Both the position numbers and the translations under genes were made by a program. From NCBI GenBank assembly GCA_965287045.1, contig OZ336888.1, positions 13,082,001 through 13,146,000 on the forward strand: DNA of 64,000 nucleotides, read 5' to 3'. The notes beneath the pieces are model-generated. The model was not told where the DNA came from and did not search any database. It was given only the letters and a program-made list of their open reading frames with translations. Shown here in pieces: positions 1,575 through 63,914 of the stretch; position 1 is the stretch's first letter, and every line of letters starts with the position of its first letter. This DNA is from Carcharhinus amblyrhynchos (Eukaryota).

Positions 1575-2170
1575 TGTCCAAATGTAGATTGGGATATTGA
1601 TAGTGCAAAGGGCAGAGACGGACAAAGGTTCCTGGATTGTTCTCAGAAAAAAAACTTTCTACAGTAATATGTATCAGTCCAATAACAAAGTATGTACAGT
1701 TGCTGTTGGTTCTTGGAATTGAGGTGGGCCAAATAGATCAAGTGTCAGTGGGGGACCATTTAAGAAACAGTGATCATTGTATCATAAGGTTTAGGATGAT
1801 TAAAAATATCTGTAGCTGAACAATGGGCTAATTTCAAAAAGGAAACGGCCCAGGCGCAGTCAAGGTATATCCTTTAAAATGGAAAGGTAGGGCAAATAAA
1901 TCCGGAGTTCCTGGATAAAAAGAGAGATAGAGAAATTAGGATAAAGAAGAAAAAGTGTGTTTATGACAGGTGTCAGGTAGAAAATACATTTGAGAACCAG
2001 GAGGAATATAGAAGGTTCAGAGGGGAGGTGAAAGAGAATATCAGAGAGCGAAGAAGGATCATGAGAAAGACTGGCAGCCAACTTAAAAAGGAATTTCAAA
2101 GTCTTTAACAGGCACATACATAGTAAAAAGCTGTTAAAAGGAGGAGTAAGGCCGATTAGGGACCTAAATC
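1575..2170 (+). mobile_element. Degraded CR1-type LINE ORF2 fragment
   Basis: VGQIDQVSVGDHLRNSDHCIIRF and later PWI and RLAANLKRN-like segments typical of the CR1 EN-RT linker; multiple stops. Confidence 0.7.
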
Positions 2171-2523
2171 AGCTAGAGGGGGATTGCTGTTATCAACTCC
2201 TCGCTCAATGTTTATGCTTCCTGCTCTTTGCCATGGCAAAATTGCACTAAAGACCAATTTCATTGTGCTAATGGACTTCCCAAAGTCTGAGGAGCCATTA
2301 ATGTCACCCATGTGGCCAGCAAAACCCCTGATACAGTATAATACAAGGATAATACAATCACATGCAGTATAGTGCCAGGCAGTGCTGCTTAAACGGATGT
2401 CCTTCATTGAAGACTATTGTTCCTTCTGCCAGTGTAAACTTGTTCCAGGAGTAGCCTAACAGTACCAGAGTCACAGAATCCAGCAACATCTTGCAATATC
2501 AAAGCGTCATCATAAGAGTCAAA

Positions 2524-2658
2524 GGCCGGAATCTTATCACCATTCATGCCGGTGGGATTGTCCCATCCCACTGCAGTGGACGGAGATTTGGCTGGCTACT
2601 AAACTTTCTGATCTCACTGCAGCGAGAGTGTGATGTGAACGGTCAATAAGACCATGCC
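2524..2658. mobile_element. ~135-bp TIR mini-element (MITE family also at 33336-33471 and 39041-39176)
   Basis: GGCCGGAATCTTA...TAAGACCATGCC ends; internal CTGCAGTG...CACTGCAG symmetry; similar copies elsewhere in the window. Confidence 0.65.
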
Positions 2659-2664
2659 TTAGAG

Positions 2665-3880
2665 TTTCACTGCACAGGAAGAGGCCCTTTGGCCCATCGT
2701 GTCTACACCTGCCATCAGGCACTAATTATTCTTAATATATTTTCCAGCACTTGGTCCACAGCCTTGTATGCTATGGCAATCAATTGCTCACCTACATGCT
2801 TCTTAAATGTTGGGAGGATTCCAGCCTCTACCACTCTTTCAGGCAAAGTTTCAGATTCTCTCTGAGTGAAAATGTTTTTTCCTCAAATCCCCTCTAAATC
2901 TTCTGTTCCTTCCCTTAAATCTATGTCCCTCGTTATTGACCTGTGAAGCTAAAGTATTGCACATAGTGCTCTAGCTGTGGTCTAACGAGTGTTTTTTTTT
3001 AACATCTCTCTCATAACCTTCCTACTCTTTTATTCTGTGCCTTGGCTAATAAAGGCAAATATCCCATGTGCCTTTTTAATCTCCTTATCTACCTGCCCTG
3101 CTGCCTTCTGGGATCTTTGAGCATGCACTCCCAGGCACTTTGGCCCTCCGTACTTCCTAGCATTCTACCATTCATTATGTATTCCCTACCATTCATTATA
3201 CATCACCTCACACATTTCAGGGTTAAATTCCAGTTGCTACTGTTCTGCCCCTCTGAGTAGCCATCCAAAGATTTTTCTCCTCGTCACGGTGGCACAGTGG
3301 TTAGCACTGCTGCTTCACTGTGCCAGGAACCTGGGTTCAATTTGGATCACTGTCTGTGTGGATTTTGCACATAGAACTGTGTCTGCATGGGTTTCCTCCC
3401 ACCGTCTAAAGATGTGCAGCTTAGGTTGACTAGCCATGCTAAATTTCCCCTAGTGTCAAGGGGATTAGCGGGGTAAATACGTTGGATTATGGGAATAGGG
3501 CCAGGTGGGATTGTGGTCGATGGGTTGAATGGCCTCGTTCTGCACTGTCGGGATTCTATGATGCTTTGCTATTTCGCACAGCACCAATTTACATGTAATC
3601 CATAAATGTATTGATCATACCACCACCCACCCCCGACACTACAAACAGCAAGGAACCCTGTGGACATGGCTTCCAGTCACAAAAACAACCTTCAACCATC
3701 ACCCTCAGCCTCCTGTCACTAAGCCAATTTTGGATCCAATTTGTCAAATTGCCCTATATCCCAAGGGCTCTTATCTCCCTGATCAGTCTCTCACGTGGTG
3801 CGTTGTCAAAAGCTTTACTGAAGTCCATGTACATTACATTAACTGCACTGCCCTAAACTACACACCCAGTCACCTCCTCA
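2665..3880 (-). mobile_element. Degraded CR1-type LINE (RT region and 3' UTR) interrupted by a V-SINE
   Basis: Reverse strand shows remnants of MDFSKAFD and the CR1 3' end (GATGGGCCAAAGGGCCTCTTCCTGTGC). Confidence 0.7.
3285..3562 (+). mobile_element. HE1-like tRNA-derived V-SINE with CR1-type tail
   Basis: GGTGGCACAGTGGTTAGCACTGCTGC head with A and B boxes, central GGGTTTCCTCC, tail GAATGGCCTC...CTGCACTGT.GGGATTCTATGA. Confidence 0.85.
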
Positions 3881-4322
3881 AAGAATTCAGTATATTCGTG
3901 TATCACTTACATCACTCATCACAAGCATGTGTCTATACAGTCTGAAGATTGAAATAATGAGGAAGAAGAGCATAAAGTATAGGGAGTGTCTGATCTCATA
4001 TAAAATGCTATTAGAAAAACCACAACATTCATAATTGATTCAATATTGACAGTAAGTCAGTTAGTTTACTGGAGGAACAGATAAAACAGATAAAAGATGG
4101 GTTGGCAGATGTTGTAACTTAAATATGACAGTCTTTGAACAAACAATGAAGTGGCTAACTCAATACATCCAAAGATAAGAAACAGATTGTGTGATTTGTT
4201 GTATATTACCCAATGTTTATTTTCTAGTGAGATTCATTCCATATATTTGAAGCCATAAATCACAAAAGAAAGTACAAAGGGAAGTCAAGTGAGGATAAAT
4301 ACTTGTTGCATCTTTTTTTAAG

Positions 4323-4479
4323 ATCAACCCTCAACCTTTCTGGGAGATTTGTGTGTATGACACTTGTTCTTGTGACTCTACTGGAGAGTGTCTTTGTCTG
4401 TGCAATGCTATTGCTGCCTATGCACACGAATGTGCACAACTTGGTATCCATGTCCAGTGGAGGGCAGCCAATCTATGCC
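4323..4479 (+). CDS. vwf: VWF exon 25-equivalent (C8-3; CLCLC = human C1097/C1099/C1101 region)
   Basis: AG at 4321-22, GTAAGT at 4480; 157 nt; INPQPFWEICVYDTCSCDSTGECLCLCNAIAAYAHECAQLGIHVQWRAANLC. Confidence 0.96.
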
Positions 4480-4869
4480 GTAAGTAAACTAGATGTCTTT
4501 TGCTCAGATCATTTCCGAAGTTGTTCAAATGCATGTTCTGTGTTATTCTGCGATCAACTACAGTAGGCAAAGAATAATTTCCACCATTGAAGTTGTTGGT
4601 AAAATGAGTTGTAAAATACATTCTTGTTAAAAGTGATTTTAAAAAATAGTGGCTTTTAGGGCTAACAATGACCTATGAATGGTAGTTAGTGAATCATTCA
4701 AATTAGTGTCCAAAGAGTTATTAACCGGAGATGTTTTGGGAAGTTTTTGTGGTATATCTTAAAAGGCTGTTAACCTCAGTTTATTCCAAAGGCCTTAAAT
4801 AAGAATATTTTTGCCACAGTCAAAGCTATCCCACCCAATCTGGGACTGCTCAATTACACAGTCACTCAT

Positions 4870-13644: not shown

Positions 13645-13687
13645 GAACACAGTAAGAAGTCTCACAACACCAGGTTAGAGTCCAACC
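13645..13687. mobile_element. 43-bp Penelope-repeat fragment with 11-bp TSD
   Basis: ACAGTAAGAAGTCTCACAACACCAGGTTAGAGTCCAAC matches 23329-23367; AGGTAGAGGGC at 13634-13644 and 13688-13698. Confidence 0.75.
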
Positions 13688-14227
13688 AGGTAGAGGGCAG
13701 GCAGTTTAAATGAGCAAAGTAGTAATTATTTAAGGCAGGGGGAGATGATAATGAGAAATGTTGAGGTAGAAATGATGGGTCCAACTGAGATGAAAATTGG
13801 TTACAATATTTCTACATAAAGCTTGTATTGTAAAACTGGCCTTGAATATTAGGACTTATTCCCGTGACAAATGAGGCACCTGTTGCAAGATGTGGGCAGG
13901 ATTTTTAAGTTGGCATGATTTCCTAACATTCTCTCCAAAATGTCAGTCGGGAACGCACTTCCCTGCCCCCCCACACACTCAGGAGGGGTTCCAACCTTAC
14001 AGAGCTGCTGGATAGTCTGACTGGCTGGAGGCTCTGTACCCAGTAGCAACAGTGCCTGGGTTTGGGACTCGAAGCAGTTCCCATTCTCTAAATCAGACTG
14101 CAGAGCAGGCTTGAAGGACGGAATGGTCGACTGCTCTGTCTCTTACGTTCTAGGTGGAAAAACCAGGGTGTTAGGGAGCGCCCATGGATTGGCAGAACCC
14201 AATGTGCAAAGAGGGACTGACACCAAC

Positions 14228-17392: not shown

Positions 17393-18084
17393 GTATGTCA
17401 CTGCAACAAATAATAATTGCACTGAAACCGGACTTCCATTGAATACGAGGCTACAGAGCAAGTGCTGGAAAATGGGACGAGGATAAGTTGCCTGATGGCT
17501 GGCATAGGCCTGATGGGTCGAAGGGCCTCTTTCTATTCTGTAAAAGTCTATGGGAGCAGTAATTGTTGAACAAATGTGAAAACAGACCTGTTTTTTGGCA
17601 AGAGAAAAATTCAAAACTTATGCCATTGAGAGAAAAAAATGAGGCAAAGTGCAATTCCTGCCAGTAGGAGGAGTTCTACTCTTGCCGGGAAGCTGGCTGC
17701 AGACTGCTAGAGGATGCCATTGTGCATGCACCGATCTCCCAGTGCACTGATCACGGCCCAAACTCCATTGACTACGCCCCTGTTCACCAAGATTGCATCC
17801 TGGGGCTCACTATTAATACTAAAAACTGTTCATGCCCTTCCCGGACGTGAGGTTGATTATTACGGCAGATTGCTGCAAGTAAGATTGCGAGAGGCGAGAA
17901 ACGGGGTGCCAACCTGGTTTTTTGCCTCTCTTGTGATCTTACTGGCTCACCACGTCGATCAACCGGTGTGACAAACTGGTAAGATCGCTCACCCCATGAC
18001 TCTTCCAAAATGTGTCATATGGGGGAGGATTGCATTTGGGAGGGGTTGGTTCTATCTTTTGGCTTAACTGAGGTGGCTGCATCT

Positions 18085-18200
18085 TAAATAGATGTAAAAT
18101 ATTACATGGCGCTATTTAGAAGAAGAACAAGGAAATATTCCTTGTGTGTTCTGGCTAATAATTGCCCCTCAACAACAACATCAAAACACAATCACTGTAG
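18085..18200 (+). mobile_element. DeuSINE (AmnSINE1/SacSINE1-like) central-domain fragment
   Basis: GATGTAAAA...CATGGCGCTATTTAGAAGAAG...TTCTGGCTAATAATTGCCCCTCAAC resembles the recalled Deu-domain; a head-like piece occurs at ~45510-45600. Confidence 0.55.
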
Positions 18201-18995
18201 TAACTTGGTCAACCTGTTATCAATGAACATAGAACCTTTATTAACAGGAATAACTATACCCAAGAGCAATGCAGATTCAATGCTTAGTCATGTCTCCAAG
18301 ATCTAACTGCTGGGACAAGCCCAGACAAGTTAAAGTGAAGCCCCAACTCAGTTCCCAATTGAACAGTCTAGTTATGTGACCCTAGGGCCAGGCACCATAA
18401 TCACACTGCTATTTTTGTGAGTTTACTGTTATTATTTTCTACATTACACCAGTGACTATACATATAAGATACTTAATAGGTTGTAAAGTGCTTGGGGCTT
18501 TTCTAGGCTTGTGAAATGAGATGTATAAATTCTTCTTTCATCATTAATTAAGCTACAGGAAATGTTCATTATTTATCTCCAGCTGTCAGGCGCTGATACT
18601 ATTTGGACCAGGATTTCCCGGCTCAGCCGGGACCTTCTGGTTCCGCCAAACATCCAATGGACTTTCAGCTGACCCCCGCACCCCTGTGAGGTGGCACTGG
18701 AAGATCCCAGCTCAATTTATCTTAGCGCAACCCGAACAAGGAAAATTCCAAACGGAATTGTTGTCCGGGCCCACTTTGAAAGATTGATTTTACTTGAGAG
18801 ATTGCGGGGGCGGTGGGGGAGGGGTGGGATTTCTCTGGAAACCAACAAAGGCCAATAGTGGGCGGGGTAACAACATTGAAGCTGACTACAGCAATGTTGG
18901 CTTTCTCCTTCTTACAGTGCAGCAATTTGGGGGAAAAAAAAACGTCAAGGATCTATGATGAATCACCAGCAGGACGGCCACTGATGCATTCACCC

Positions 18996-19228
18996 GGTAA
19001 GAAGTCTGACAACACCAGGTTTGAATCCAACCAATTTATTTGATAGTAATCCCACAAGCTTTCAGGGTTTGCCCTTTGTCAGGTGAACCTGACGTCATTC
19101 ACCTGACGAAGGGCAAACCTCGAAAGCTTGTGAGTTTACTATCAAATAAATTGGTTGGACTCAAATCTGGTGTTGTCAGACTTCTTACTGTGCTTACCCC
19201 AGTCCAACGCGGGTATCTCCACATCATG
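18996..19228. mobile_element. Palindromic Penelope-derived mini-element with a hammerhead motif in each arm and a 10-bp TSD
   Basis: Arms 18996-19087 and 19098-19190 are reverse complements; GCATTCACCC at 18986-18995 and 19229-19238. Confidence 0.85.
19097..19135 (+). ncRNA. Minimal type I hammerhead ribozyme motif (Penelope type)
   Basis: Stem I ATTCAC/GTGAGT; core CTGACGA; extra A; stem II GGG-CAAAC-CTC; GAAA; palindromic AGCT in place of stem III; triplet CUU ending at 19129. Confidence 0.65.
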
Positions 19229-19996
19229 GCATTCACCCCGCCAGCGACTTAAACAGCTGAGGATTGGGGCACCATTTTTAAAGGCCACCCAGCACAGAGA
19301 GAGCAAACTACTTCATCCTGGAAACCACCCCCAACATTCTTCTGGCACTACCTGGGCCTTGCCCCTGACTAACCCCTGGGCACTGCCCAGACGCTACCAG
19401 TGTCCAGGCAGAGCTGTGGCAGGGCCCTCTTCTTCCTGAGCCCTCACCTCAGCCCCCCGTGAGATCCGCTCACCAGCGCACGCTTTGGGAGACCAGTTGT
19501 GATTCACGTCATTCTGCTGTCACACTGACGTGAATGGATTTTTGAAGGAAGATGATTCAGGTGCAGGACCTGATAATGATTTGGGAATATGTTCAAATGT
19601 TGCTGGCACTGGGGGAAGGAGATTGAATCGTGCATTTATGCTGATGTAAAATTTTGCGGTTCTCACACTATTTTCCATTCCCGTCGCAGAACTTACCCAG
19701 CACGAGCAGGAACGGAAAATCGCAGCCTTGGTGTCAGAGCCTGCTTCTGTTGAGTATGTGATAAAATAGGCAACAGTAGGAGAACACCCAGTCACACTTT
19801 GGCACCATATTATTGATATGAGTACTTTTCTTTTCAGAGTAGTGAAATTCTAACAATCACAGTATAGTCCCTGAATGGATTTTATGTAAACAGGACCCTG
19901 GAGAATGCAGTTAATCTGAGTTTCAGCAACCTCCAGCTGAACTCTGTGATAATTCCTTGATTGTCACCTTATTTTTCTTCTTCCCTTTTCTGTTAG

Positions 19997-20158
19997 GTGT
20001 CACAGTGATCCCAATAGCAATAGGACAAAAATATGACGAGCACCAACTTCTAACCTTAGCTGGGGAGAGGTCACATCACATCATTCATCTGGGTGAAATG
20101 GAAGACCTTCCCACAATGGTGACACTTAGCGATGAGTTGATCAAAAAGGTCTGTGCAG
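19997..20158 (+). CDS. vwf: VWF exon 32-equivalent (A3 end)
   Basis: Polypyrimidine tract plus TAG, GTGAGG donor; VTVIPIAIGQKYDEHQLLTLAGERSHHIIHLGEMEDLPTMVTLSDELIKKVCA. Confidence 0.96.
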
Positions 20159-22030: not shown

Positions 22031-23330
22031 ATGGGGAGGTTAGTGGGTTACCTGTGTTCATGAGGGAGGAGCTTGCCTCGGTTCCTGTTGAGTGAGGGAG
22101 GTGGGTGTTGTTCTCTGTATCCCGGGGTGCAGTGGAGAGGGAGGGAAGGTGGATGGAGGATTGTTCCAATGCAAGGTGGCTCTCTTCGGCCCCACTCTGC
22201 ATTGTGACGGTGAAAACCAGGGCCCTAGATTCTCTGAAGGGACAACTCGGCCACTGAAGAGACACACACCGGTTTTCTTGCCTCAGCCAGCACCCTGTGC
22301 AGAGAGTTCAAAACCCTCTCAACTGCCTTGATTTATATCCTTTCCAAAGACAATTAAATCTACAGCATCTACACATATTCCCTCTTTTAAGCTTAAATCT
22401 GTATCCTCTCATCCTCCTTTAAAATTGTTGCCACAATGACTATAGTTGGAGTTAAATGGATTGGTTCTGTTGTGCTGAATAGTGTTTTTCTATTAGCTGC
22501 TAACACAACATTAATTTACAAACCAATGTCCACATAGAATCAACAAATAATACTCTATCATTATTATTACTCCCATTTTTATAAATGATATATTCTGCCT
22601 GCATGAATTGGAATAACGTTACAATTTGAGGTTTTAAGAAGAATAATAGCTTGAATTTTTTTAAACACTTAAAGAGCGGAATTTTCTCCCTCTCTGTGGT
22701 GGGTTTCATGGTGACGGGAGGTGGCGTGCCGCTCGCTGGTGGCGGAATCTTATGGTTCTGCCATTGTCGATGGGGTTTCCCATTGAAAGTACCCCTCGCT
22801 GCTGGGAAATCCGGGTGTGCCATCAACAGCATTGTAAGATCCCACCAGGGAGAACGGCAGAAAGGTTTTGGTGATAGTCTCGGTGCCAAGACTGAAATCA
22901 GGTCATGAGCTGGACATCGCGAACCGGTGGGGGGGGGGGATGTTATTCATGGCAACCAATTAAGAGTTTGCCGCAGGACTATCTTCATAATGTCAGCCTG
23001 ATTTTTCAGTCTACTGGTCAAATGAAAAAGCTTTTAGAAGTGGCTGCTGCTGGGACTACAAGGAGAGGAAGGTGGTGCCTTCATGTCAAGGTGCCCTCAA
23101 AAGGCAGGTAAGATCATTCTGATACATGCAAGAGTCAGGCACGCTGGCGATCAGAGCGGTGACCCCGGAAGTGATGGTGTTGGAGCCAGGGGTTGGGTAC
23201 TCCATCAGCCATTGAGTAGACACAATAGAAAGCTCACCCCCATCCTGGTGCAGAAAGTGGCCTGTAATTAGCCAATCAATTGTAATTATTGGCTGCCCAA
23301 CCTCTGGTTGCCTGTTGCTGCTGTTCTCAC

Positions 23331-23514
23331 AGTAAGAAGTCTCACAACACCAGGTTAAAGTCCAACAGGTTTATTTGATAGCAAACACCACTAGGACAGG
23401 TTGAGGCCGTCCTAGTGGCTTTTGCTACCAGATAAACCTGTTGGTCTTTAACCTGGTGTTGTGAGACTTCTTACTGTGTTTACCCCAGTCCAATGCCGGC
23501 ATCTCCGCATCATG
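23331..23514. mobile_element. Palindromic Penelope-derived mini-element (same family as 18996), hammerhead core absent, 14-bp TSD
   Basis: Arms ~23328-23397 and ~23409-23478; same unpaired 3' tail TTACCCCAGTCCAA...CATCATG; GCT(G/A)CTGTTCTCAC at 23317-23330 and 23515-23528. Confidence 0.85.
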
Positions 23515-23695
23515 GCTACTGTTCTCACCATTAACAATATCCCACTGCTACGGGAGTGTGTTCAGCTTCCCTCCCGATACCTTGCATTTGTTGTGGCCTT
23601 TTGCAGACCAGCCCATCTCCAGAGGGCTGGTGAAATTCAACCCCATTTACTTGTGAGAACTGATACTAACACTGACTTCACTACATTTGTTCTAG

Positions 23696-61784: not shown

Positions 61785-63590
61785 GAACATGTCTTCGTGA
61801 GTTCTACCTCAGTGAATTCTGGGCTTGACATGATGTTGAACTCTTCTTTCATCTCCGTGCCCACTTCTTTGGGCAAAAGTCTTCCCCCCCATTCCACAGA
61901 TCCATTCATGTGCCTCCAACATTCTGCCTCCAACTGGACACCCCCGCCGGGACAATTACCTGACCTCGATCTTTTCATTGGGAGCTGTTGACGAGACATT
62001 GGCCTTCTTAATTTTTCTCCACCCTCAGCCATTCCAACCTCTCTCCCTCTGAACTTTCTGCTCTTTGCTCCCTCAGGTCCAACCCTGACATTGTCATCAA
62101 ACCTGCCGACAAAGGGGGGCGCTGTTGTCATCTGGCATACTGACCGCTACCTCGCAGAGGCTGAGGGCCAACTCTCAGATACTTCCTCCTACTTCTCCCT
62201 GGACCTTGGCCACACCTTTGAACATCAAGCCATTATCTCTAACACCGTCACCCAACTCATTTCCTCCAATGCCTTCTGCCCACAGCTTCAAATCTCATAG
62301 TCTCCCAACCCCGGACAGCCTGCTTCTACCAACTTCCCAAAATCCACAAAAAGGACTGTCTGGTAGGTGTCAGCATGCTCTTGCCCACCGAACTTATTAC
62401 CTCTTACCTTGACTCCATCCTCACTCCCCTGGTCCATTCCCTCCCCACCTACATCCGGGATTCCTCCAGCTTCCAGTTCACAGGCCCTAACTGCCTCCTA
62501 TAACCATGGATGTGCAATCTCTTTACAGCTCCATACCATGCCAGAACGGCTTGAGAACTCTTCACTTCTTTCTTGAAAAGAAGCCTAAACAATTCCCATC
62601 CACCACCACTCTCCTCCGGCTGGCTGAACTCATTCCATCTCTCGACCACTTCTCCTTTAACTCATTCCACTTTCTCCAAATCCAAGGTGTAGCAATGGGT
62701 ACCTGCGTGGGTACTAGCTACACTTGTCTTTTTATGGGCTTATTCCAGGCCTAACAGGTCCCCTTCCACAACTCCTTTACCGATATATCGATGACTATTT
62801 TGGTGCTGTTTCATTCTCTCATCCAGACCTGGAAACATTCATCAACTTTACTTCCAGTTTCCACCCCTCCATCGCCTTCACCTGGCCCATCTCAGGCGTT
62901 TCAGACACTTTGGCCATTCACACCTTGGATTCTCCCTATGAACATAAGAACATAAGAACATAAGAAATAGGAGCAGGAGTAGGCCATCTGGCCCTTCGAG
63001 CCTGCCCCGCCATTCAATAAGATCATGGCTGATCTGTCGTGGCTCAGTTCCACTTTCCCGCCCTCTCCCCATAACCCTTAATCCCCTCTCTTATCAAAAA
63101 CCCATCAACCCGCTTCTTAAAAATATTTAGCGAGGCAGCCTCCACCACTTCAACGGGCAGAGAATTCCAGAGATTCACCACCCTTTGAGTGAAGAAGTTC
63201 CTCCTCAACTCCGTTCTGAACCGCCCCCCCTTTATCTTGAGGCTGTGCCCCCTAGTCCTACTGTCTTTTTTGAGCGGGAAGAGTCTTTCCACCTCTATCC
63301 TATCCATCCCATTCATCATCTTATACGTCTCAATGAGATCTCCCCTCATTCTTCTAAACTCTAACGAGTACAAGCCTAGTTTATTCAGCCTCTGGACTGC
63401 AATTAGCAGCCTTTCCCCTGGTTTTTGCAGCTATGACTCATTTTTTATTCCCTCCCCATGCAATATAAATATCTCCCACTCTCAATGCCTTTTAGCTTTG
63501 ACAAAGGTCATCTGGACTCAACCTCAGCTCTTTTCTCTCCTTACAGATGCTGCCAGACCTGCTGAGATTTTCCAGCATTTTCCCTTTTGA
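61785..63590 (+). mobile_element. Degraded Penelope-like retroelement (RT and terminal repeat) interrupted by CR1
   Basis: Penelope RT motifs across frames: IKPADKGGAVVIW, MDVQSLYSSIP, QGVAMGT, YRYIDD; terminal repeat ~63395-63590 homologous to 785-1097. Confidence 0.88.
62940..63392 (-). mobile_element. Young CR1 3' fragment nested in the Penelope element
   Basis: ORF 63044-63373 near-identical to the C-terminus of 36046-37020; (AAGAACAT)n tail. Confidence 0.93.
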
Positions 63591-63914
63591 TGTCCTAATG
63601 AGTACTGTGAATCAAGCCTTTTACCTGTTATTTTGAATTGAATATAGAGATTAAAATGGCTAATGGGCTCTTTTAATTCTACGACAACAACACATTATTC
63701 ACAAAGACTTGTTCTTTCCTTTTACCCTTACTGGCGTTCCAATTAAATATAAGGTATACGATGATATGTGGTGATTAATGAGAGCAATGGTCACTGCTTA
63801 CAATGTTTACCAGTATCACTAACGGAAAGCAGAATAGGTTTGGGCTTCAGCAGTGATGCTTGAAACAACATTTCTCTGCCGTGTTCAGATCCTGCATTTT
63901 GCTCTTTGTTGCAG

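Follow-up and report, generated by a model that had tools for sequence, protein, structure and literature searches.

The window, the 64,000-nucleotide stretch analysed here, carries in a VWF intron a palindromic insert that is flanked by a TSD and contains a hammerhead motif. The question raised by this locus is whether the palindrome is a mobile unit in its own right, with an antisense arm that shields the host transcript from the ribozyme, as the initial annotation proposed, or the remnant of a larger element. Re-deriving the coordinates recovered the layout described there, a 10-bp TSD, 233 bp of inserted DNA, inverted arms and a tail of ~40 nt, with arms of 91 nt (Table 1). These pair 18997-19087 with 19098-19188 at 92% complementarity across a spacer of 10 nt, and 18996 is the unpaired edge base of the tail-less arm. 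The hairpin of the insert has a predicted folding energy of -156.8 kcal/mol (z = -22), and none of 200 shuffles was equally stable. The proposed location in VWF was likewise borne out: the exon starting at 19998 matches VWF A3 structures (E 8e-10), so that the insert lies within a + strand VWF intron and + is the pre-mRNA strand.

Table 1. Features of the insert and its host intron (positions in the window).
Feature	Position	Strand	Basis or remark
Left TSD, GCATTCACCC	18986..18995	+	Sequence; family TSDs 7-18 bp, mostly 11-14
Tail-less arm, antisense PLE pLTR end	18996..19087	-	Covers roughly +87 to -5, counting from hammerhead C3
Dead hammerhead copy, CUGACAA (G8 to A; C11.1 to U)	19050..19088	-	Sequence
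10-nt joint between the arms, copy-specific	19088..19097	.	Centre unique among 426 loci
Minimal type I hammerhead	19097..19135	+	Descriptor match and family alignment; cut site predicted
Sense arm, 5'-truncated pLTR end of a PLE	19098..19188	+	Similarity to PLE copies
AATAAA of the pLTR, candidate polyadenylation signal	19145..19150	+	Sequence; within the hairpin here; putative function
PLE tail, 40 nt	19189..19228	+	Final ATG (19226-19228) is where the 893-aa ORF of the parent starts
Right TSD, GCATTCACCC	19229..19238	+	Sequence
Host VWF intron within the A3-domain coding region	~17393..19997	+	Splice sites by eye

A Penelope-like element (PLE) had been suggested as the origin, and the insert is indeed continuous with the pLTR end of one. 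Using a motif located just upstream of the hammerhead, we found PLE copies in the genome, some of which continue into a long open frame, and the insert corresponds to the pLTR end of elements that code for a reverse transcriptase (L064, L274 and L276, with RVT_1 matches). In L274 an inverted pLTR is followed by a direct one with the tail, then by the ATG, a frame of 893 aa and the 3' pLTR. L276 likewise has an 893-aa frame; both frames (that of L274 at 2093-4774) are apparently intact. The parent frame matches Pfam RVT_1 (E 3e-9). A Pfam search of the parent protein gave no GIY-YIG match, and a PF01541 profile search of the genome gave three weak matches; GIY-YIG, CCHH and CX4CxxC linker motifs, as defined in the accessible text of PMC8557442, were seen by eye. 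The linker of L274 reads C-x4-C-x2-C, fitting the CX2-5CxxC of Neptune/Nematis, and this motif points to a parent of that type. The pairs L258/L274, L264/L276 and L269/L275 show that the last three letters of the tail are the parent's start codon, and contigs of four related DNA runs break at 19226-19230, hundreds per run. Since a 219-nt piece of the ORF has 99% matches in 39 other copies, one subfamily was active recently. Judged by sequence, the insert belongs to an autonomous PLE of this genome, with an RT and a putative GIY-YIG endonuclease.

To describe the family, we took a sample blind to the 5' end, made up of the first 90 out of at least 3,283 exact matches to the tail junction; three loci were dropped as identical duplicates of one locus, flanks included, and the remaining 87 copies were drawn from a single contig with a single exact 24-nt pattern. 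An inverted piece adjoins the element in 57 of the 87, and in 52 the inverted arm extends to the element's 3' end. The centres of these 52 palindromes are all distinct and their lengths range from 77 to 1102 bp, with just 11 of them at 200-270 bp; the centre of the VWF copy is absent from every other of 426 loci. The tail is confined to exactly one arm in 51 of the 52, and a TSD of 7-18 bp was found in 46 of them, compared with only 7 of 30 non-palindromic copies. Outer ends are fixed, at about +125 in the tailed arm and at +86 to +97 in the tail-less arm of 43/52 palindromes, and inner ends are spread from -1062 to +73. The same arm is also found inverted on long and full-length PLE copies, and among the long elements the tail may be on either arm. 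Inverted pairs also occur outside the sample: in 614 kb that, except for the 104 kb of window plus flanks, had not been picked for the element, 14 of 48 matching clusters are inverted pairs, counting the 18996-19228 insert. At three loci (L090, L179 and L232) the hammerhead regions are rearranged or doubled, or a jump connects the 3' UTR with the pLTR end.

Because the centres are distinct and the inner ends variable, each palindrome is best read as built at insertion. We therefore conclude, with a probability of about 0.85, that a PLE pLTR end inserted here with heavy 5' truncation, as two head-to-head copies that arrived in a single landing and did not move afterwards; parent, tail end, outer and inner ends, unique centre and TSD are observations, from which we infer the mechanism. 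The claim that it is a non-autonomous fold-back unit was not supported by the census. A mini-element transcribed and re-inserted as a unit of 233 nt would account for the TSDs that enclose the whole palindrome and for the similar length of the 30 top-ranking matches of the complete insert, but those matches were ranked by their likeness to the query and even so differ in their centres. Considering also the lengths and centres of the blind sample, and the inverted arm on full-length copies, we regard such a unit as very improbable. The sole identical set consists of four insertions (L158-L161, at G000:C1 5.3-5.5 Mb) that share flanks and TSD, and hence reflects a recent segmental duplication of host DNA. 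A self-propagating unit of the SINE or MITE kind in general was rejected as well, as the 52 sampled palindromes share no fixed internal structure.

Even less credible is a MITE of the DNA-transposon type or a microRNA precursor. Both would fit a long hairpin, and Rfam did return microRNA matches, but with scores far under the gathering thresholds (84 vs 330, 69 vs 200 and 49 vs 80), and the variable TSD length, the one-sided tail and the continuity with a PLE also speak against them; we consider the Rfam microRNA matches on the insert to be hairpin artefacts. A non-LTR retrozyme was also rejected, as the arms are inverted and there is no long direct repeat in 18500-19700.

The truncated PLE insertion is likely an older one, common to relatives, and not recent. 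A contig from X9 crosses its left junction by 58 nt and one from X7 its right junction by 32 nt; the flanks of these contigs, which come from two other organisms, differ by a few percent. No contig of the relatives was seen to span the whole insert, and those listed include no empty site. Several other repeats were noticed in the window. A second palindromic stub in a VWF intron (23324-23516) belongs to an older subfamily; its arms lack any hammerhead core, both ending ~3 nt 5' of the cleavage site. At 13646-13691, a direct repeat of ~10 nt encloses a short antisense piece of the pLTR end seen in the insert. A palindrome of 270 bp from a different repeat family (828-1097) has arms that are 83% identical and, by eye, a hammerhead-like variant core, and a piece related to it is found at 63448-63594. 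Finally, 19502-19535 contains a 15-bp inverted repeat, 14 nt of which resemble the centre of the insert, with a mild pile-up of contigs in other runs.

How could such a palindrome be built in a single event? Each arm has the polarity expected of a cDNA extended inward from one of the 3' ends that a staggered cut leaves. According to the accessible text of PMC11167929, the PLE protein of the anole cleaves and extends both strands, and two start sites of reverse transcription bound the tail. We propose that the PLE protein would cut both target strands with a stagger of ~10 nt; the bottom-strand end would then serve as primer at the distal start site of reverse transcription and yield the arm with its tail. 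From the top-strand end, synthesis would begin at the proximal start site and yield the tail-less arm, on the same or a sister RNA. Both cDNA copies would stall just beyond the hammerhead, and the arms would be joined by fold-back or by microhomology repair with templated filler. The hammerhead itself would have been carried along from the parent; there it is conserved and would work as a dimer with help from the protein. In the VWF copy, the joint at 19088-19097 holds short inverted copies of the hammerhead core, and templated repair filler is its likely origin. The motif CATTCAC is common to the target site (18987-18993 and 19230-19236) and to the element's stem I strand (19096-19102), which may be due to chance or may have aided the joining.

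The competing explanation derives the inverted arm from self-priming of one cDNA by fold-back, or from an antisense template, with the tail left by endonuclease resolution; it was proposed for rotifer PLEs in what is accessible of PMC3846280 and PMC8557442. In its favour, variants are shared between arms: among 114 palindromes, the discordance of subfamily variants is 13% within an element vs 39% between elements, on a background of 4.4%. The sharing indicates that the arms stem mostly from one source, and the excess of 13% over the background that some arms may stem from different RNAs. There is also an excess of symmetric inner ends, which lie within 3 nt of each other in 12/52 palindromes (2.3 expected) and within 11 nt in 21/52 (6.8 expected); this suggests that fold-back, or coupled stalling, operates at the joining in part of the events. 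However, the tail-less arm is the longer one in 24/52, reaching further 5' by up to ~500 nt, and the tailed arm in 7/52, one of which has its arm labels swapped. In those 24 the tail-less arm was therefore not copied from the tailed cDNA, which excludes simple fold-back there, and the presence of the tail on either arm of long elements adds to the difficulty. We thus hold fold-back as the origin of the inverted arm to be possible but unlikely; it bears on the mechanism only and leaves the identity of the insert unchanged.

Returning to priming from both cut strands, the arm ends also bear on the state of the template. They show no accumulation where the ribozyme would cut: 2 of 97 arms end at +26 to +30, a rate of 0.4% per nt. 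The rate reaches 1.8-2.0% per nt at -19 to 0, a mild excess immediately 5' of the core, and 0.6-1.6% in the remaining bins of +1 to +60, these bins having been picked post hoc. Uncleaved RNA as the template agrees with this lack of enrichment at the cut site. We see about an even chance that the stubs are an in vivo record of PLE priming from both cut strands on uncleaved RNA of one source locus, with each strand using a different one of the two start sites at the tail's borders. If true, two-ended priming would account for both the inverted pLTR and the one-sided tail by one and the same event.

The hammerhead had been read on the + strand with a CUGANGA and GAAA core, an AGCU palindrome and a CUU triplet at 19127-19129, and it is present as described. 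Stem I is formed by 19097-19102 with 19130-19135, CUGACGA occupies 19103-19109 and is followed by an extra A (19110), and the predicted cut falls at 19129/19130; stem II has just 3 bp (G-C, G-U and G-C). A search for hammerheads, which had been put forward as a check, succeeded in part: a min-HHR descriptor gave one match within the 64-kb window (19103, +) and none in 100 shuffles, whereas Rfam gave no match of a hammerhead model on the insert up to E 1. The loss of G8 from the left arm was also read correctly on the - strand, where C11.1 has changed too. Because G8 is lost, the - strand copy is taken to be dead, and the idea of an insert that bears ribozymes on both strands is not supported as far as function goes.

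Family copies were aligned for the stem covariation that had likewise been suggested as a check, and this was found, as switching between G-C and A-U in stem II. The core is near-invariant in 221 family arms except at two CpG sites; the extra A after A9 is present in 220 of them and the 15.2-16.2 palindrome in 212, and the G10.1-C11.1 pair is G-C in 170 and G-U in 39. Among 129 distinct rows, the 10.2-11.2 pair of stem II is G-C in 67 and A-U in 50, and stem I.2 is A-U in 105 and G-C in 7. The covariation score was reached by none of 500 shuffles, although both sides change in only two of ten pairs and kin rows are counted repeatedly; the pair counts reflect few events. From this alignment, the hammerhead fold is conserved in the source elements, which supports a real ribozyme at the family level. 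The copy at 19097-19135 is, by prediction, a weakened one, with its 3-bp stem II and a poor dimer energy: in the energy model its active dimer fold has -8.7 kcal/mol, and those of two family variants have -22.3 and -20.9. In the accessible text of the respective papers, a single min-HHR does not cleave in vitro (PMC4209133) and the anole PLE hammerhead does not cleave unless its protein is present (PMC11167929).

The second part of the opening question is whether the antisense arm protects the host. Masking as such is supported by prediction, with the hammerhead core paired to the left arm in the pre-mRNA at P 0.999 and, co-transcriptionally, at 0.98 as soon as CUGACGA emerges. Protection through masking, the other half of the proposal, is not. 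Changes at hammerhead G8 and G12 are lethal to the ribozyme. Exact counts over the genome give 1,988 G8A vs 2,193 C7T changes at the first core CpG and 1,066 G12A vs 849 C11.1T at the second, that is, 3,054 lethal vs 3,042 benign; going by these counts, genomic hammerhead copies decay neutrally. At a first look, lethal to benign changes stood at 7:16 in 28 masked arms and at 24:15 in 51 unmasked ones (p 0.034). This signal was not replicated in a second sample, whose loci partly overlap the first and from which 8 of 120 were dropped without a 5' core: 22/56 lethal vs 26/56 benign cases were masked (p 0.57), with the G12 pair leaning as before (7/26 vs 13/26).

Retention of the antisense arm by selection, shielding the host pre-mRNA from ribozyme cleavage, would be in keeping with the completeness of the predicted masking, with the first look and with the reported depletion of tandem retrozymes from Xenopus introns in the accessible text of bioRxiv 10.64898/2026.07.22.740005. 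Against it stand the failed replication, the balanced decay, and the inactivity of lone min-HHRs and low dimer energy noted above. Moreover, 12 of 30 arms that bear a hammerhead have no antisense partner inside 1.5 kb, and 21 of the 30 have intact cores. VWF itself holds an incompletely covered one: in an intron ~35 kb upstream, a stub in the opposite orientation (L072:3404-3742) has a sense min-HHR at L072:3667 whose core is intact. Its stem II is 5 bp long, the AGCU is shared with the insert, and the antisense arm of the stub covers the 3' end only. This min-HHR is a possible partner for the 19097-19135 hammerhead in the same pre-mRNA. All considered, shielding under selection is improbable, a weak selective effect of masking being possible. 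Given a weakened hammerhead that is predicted to be locked in a hairpin, the VWF pre-mRNA is likely uncut, and the silence of the ribozyme likely follows from the way the element inserted, as a side effect and not through selection.

The locus is an ordinary one, and probably neutral. Its value is that of one among many thousands of junction records, since, next to the exact matches to the tail junction, the sequence immediately preceding the hammerhead has 20,795 of its own. These records bear on how PLEs build their inverted repeats and tails, a process termed undefined in the accessible text of PMC8557442, and on hammerhead cutting in vivo. As intact-looking 893-aa parents are present in the genome, the mechanism is testable in vitro.

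A literature search that covered mainly open-access main texts found no paper on two-ended PLE priming or on shark stubs; parts of the model are in print, and the joined model was not found in the literature searched. Palindromes of this type may appear in the supplements of PMC4209133 and PMC11167929. The layout of inverted pLTR, one-sided tail and TSD is already published, as seen from the accessible parts of PMC3846280 and PMC8557442. Insertions of EN+ PLEs from Adineta (Pen2a and Pen2 in PMC3846280; scheme in PMC8557442) resemble the insert in their head-to-head, 5'-truncated pLTR copies, in an optional tail of 30-40 nt at one end that adjoins the start of the ORF, and in a 9-10 bp TSD enclosing the whole. 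Unlike in Pen2 and Pen2a as described in those texts, no ORF remains between the arms here, and the tail stops with the start codon; in the rotifer elements, pLTR plus tail take in up to 22 codons (PMC3846280). Likewise, Poseidon PAc from the green anole has a tail with two fixed ends, and the accessible text of PMC11167929 does not indicate cleaved RNA as its template, as in the family of the insert. The ORF of PAc starts inside the hammerhead, and here ~95 nt past the cut site; the CX4CxxC linker of the parent, a Neptune/Nematis trait, is absent from Poseidon.

With respect to the ribozyme, a minimal hammerhead of the dimer type known from PLEs had been put forward, and its features match the metazoan min-HHRs in the accessible text of PMC4209133: type I, an extra base between A9 and G10.1, a G10.1-C11.1 pair and a palindromic, loop-less 15.2-16.2. 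That paper already contains pairs of min-HHRs on opposite strands, 100-700 bp apart, from which the insert differs by cores only ~20 nt apart, with the sense stem II degraded to 3 bp and the antisense core without G8. Lastly, non-LTR retrozymes, as presented in the accessible text of bioRxiv 10.64898/2026.07.22.740005, are, like the insert, non-coding, derived from PLEs and equipped with a type I hammerhead, but they form head-to-tail tandem arrays capable of forming dimers, whereas the insert has a head-to-head arrangement and a single core on each strand.
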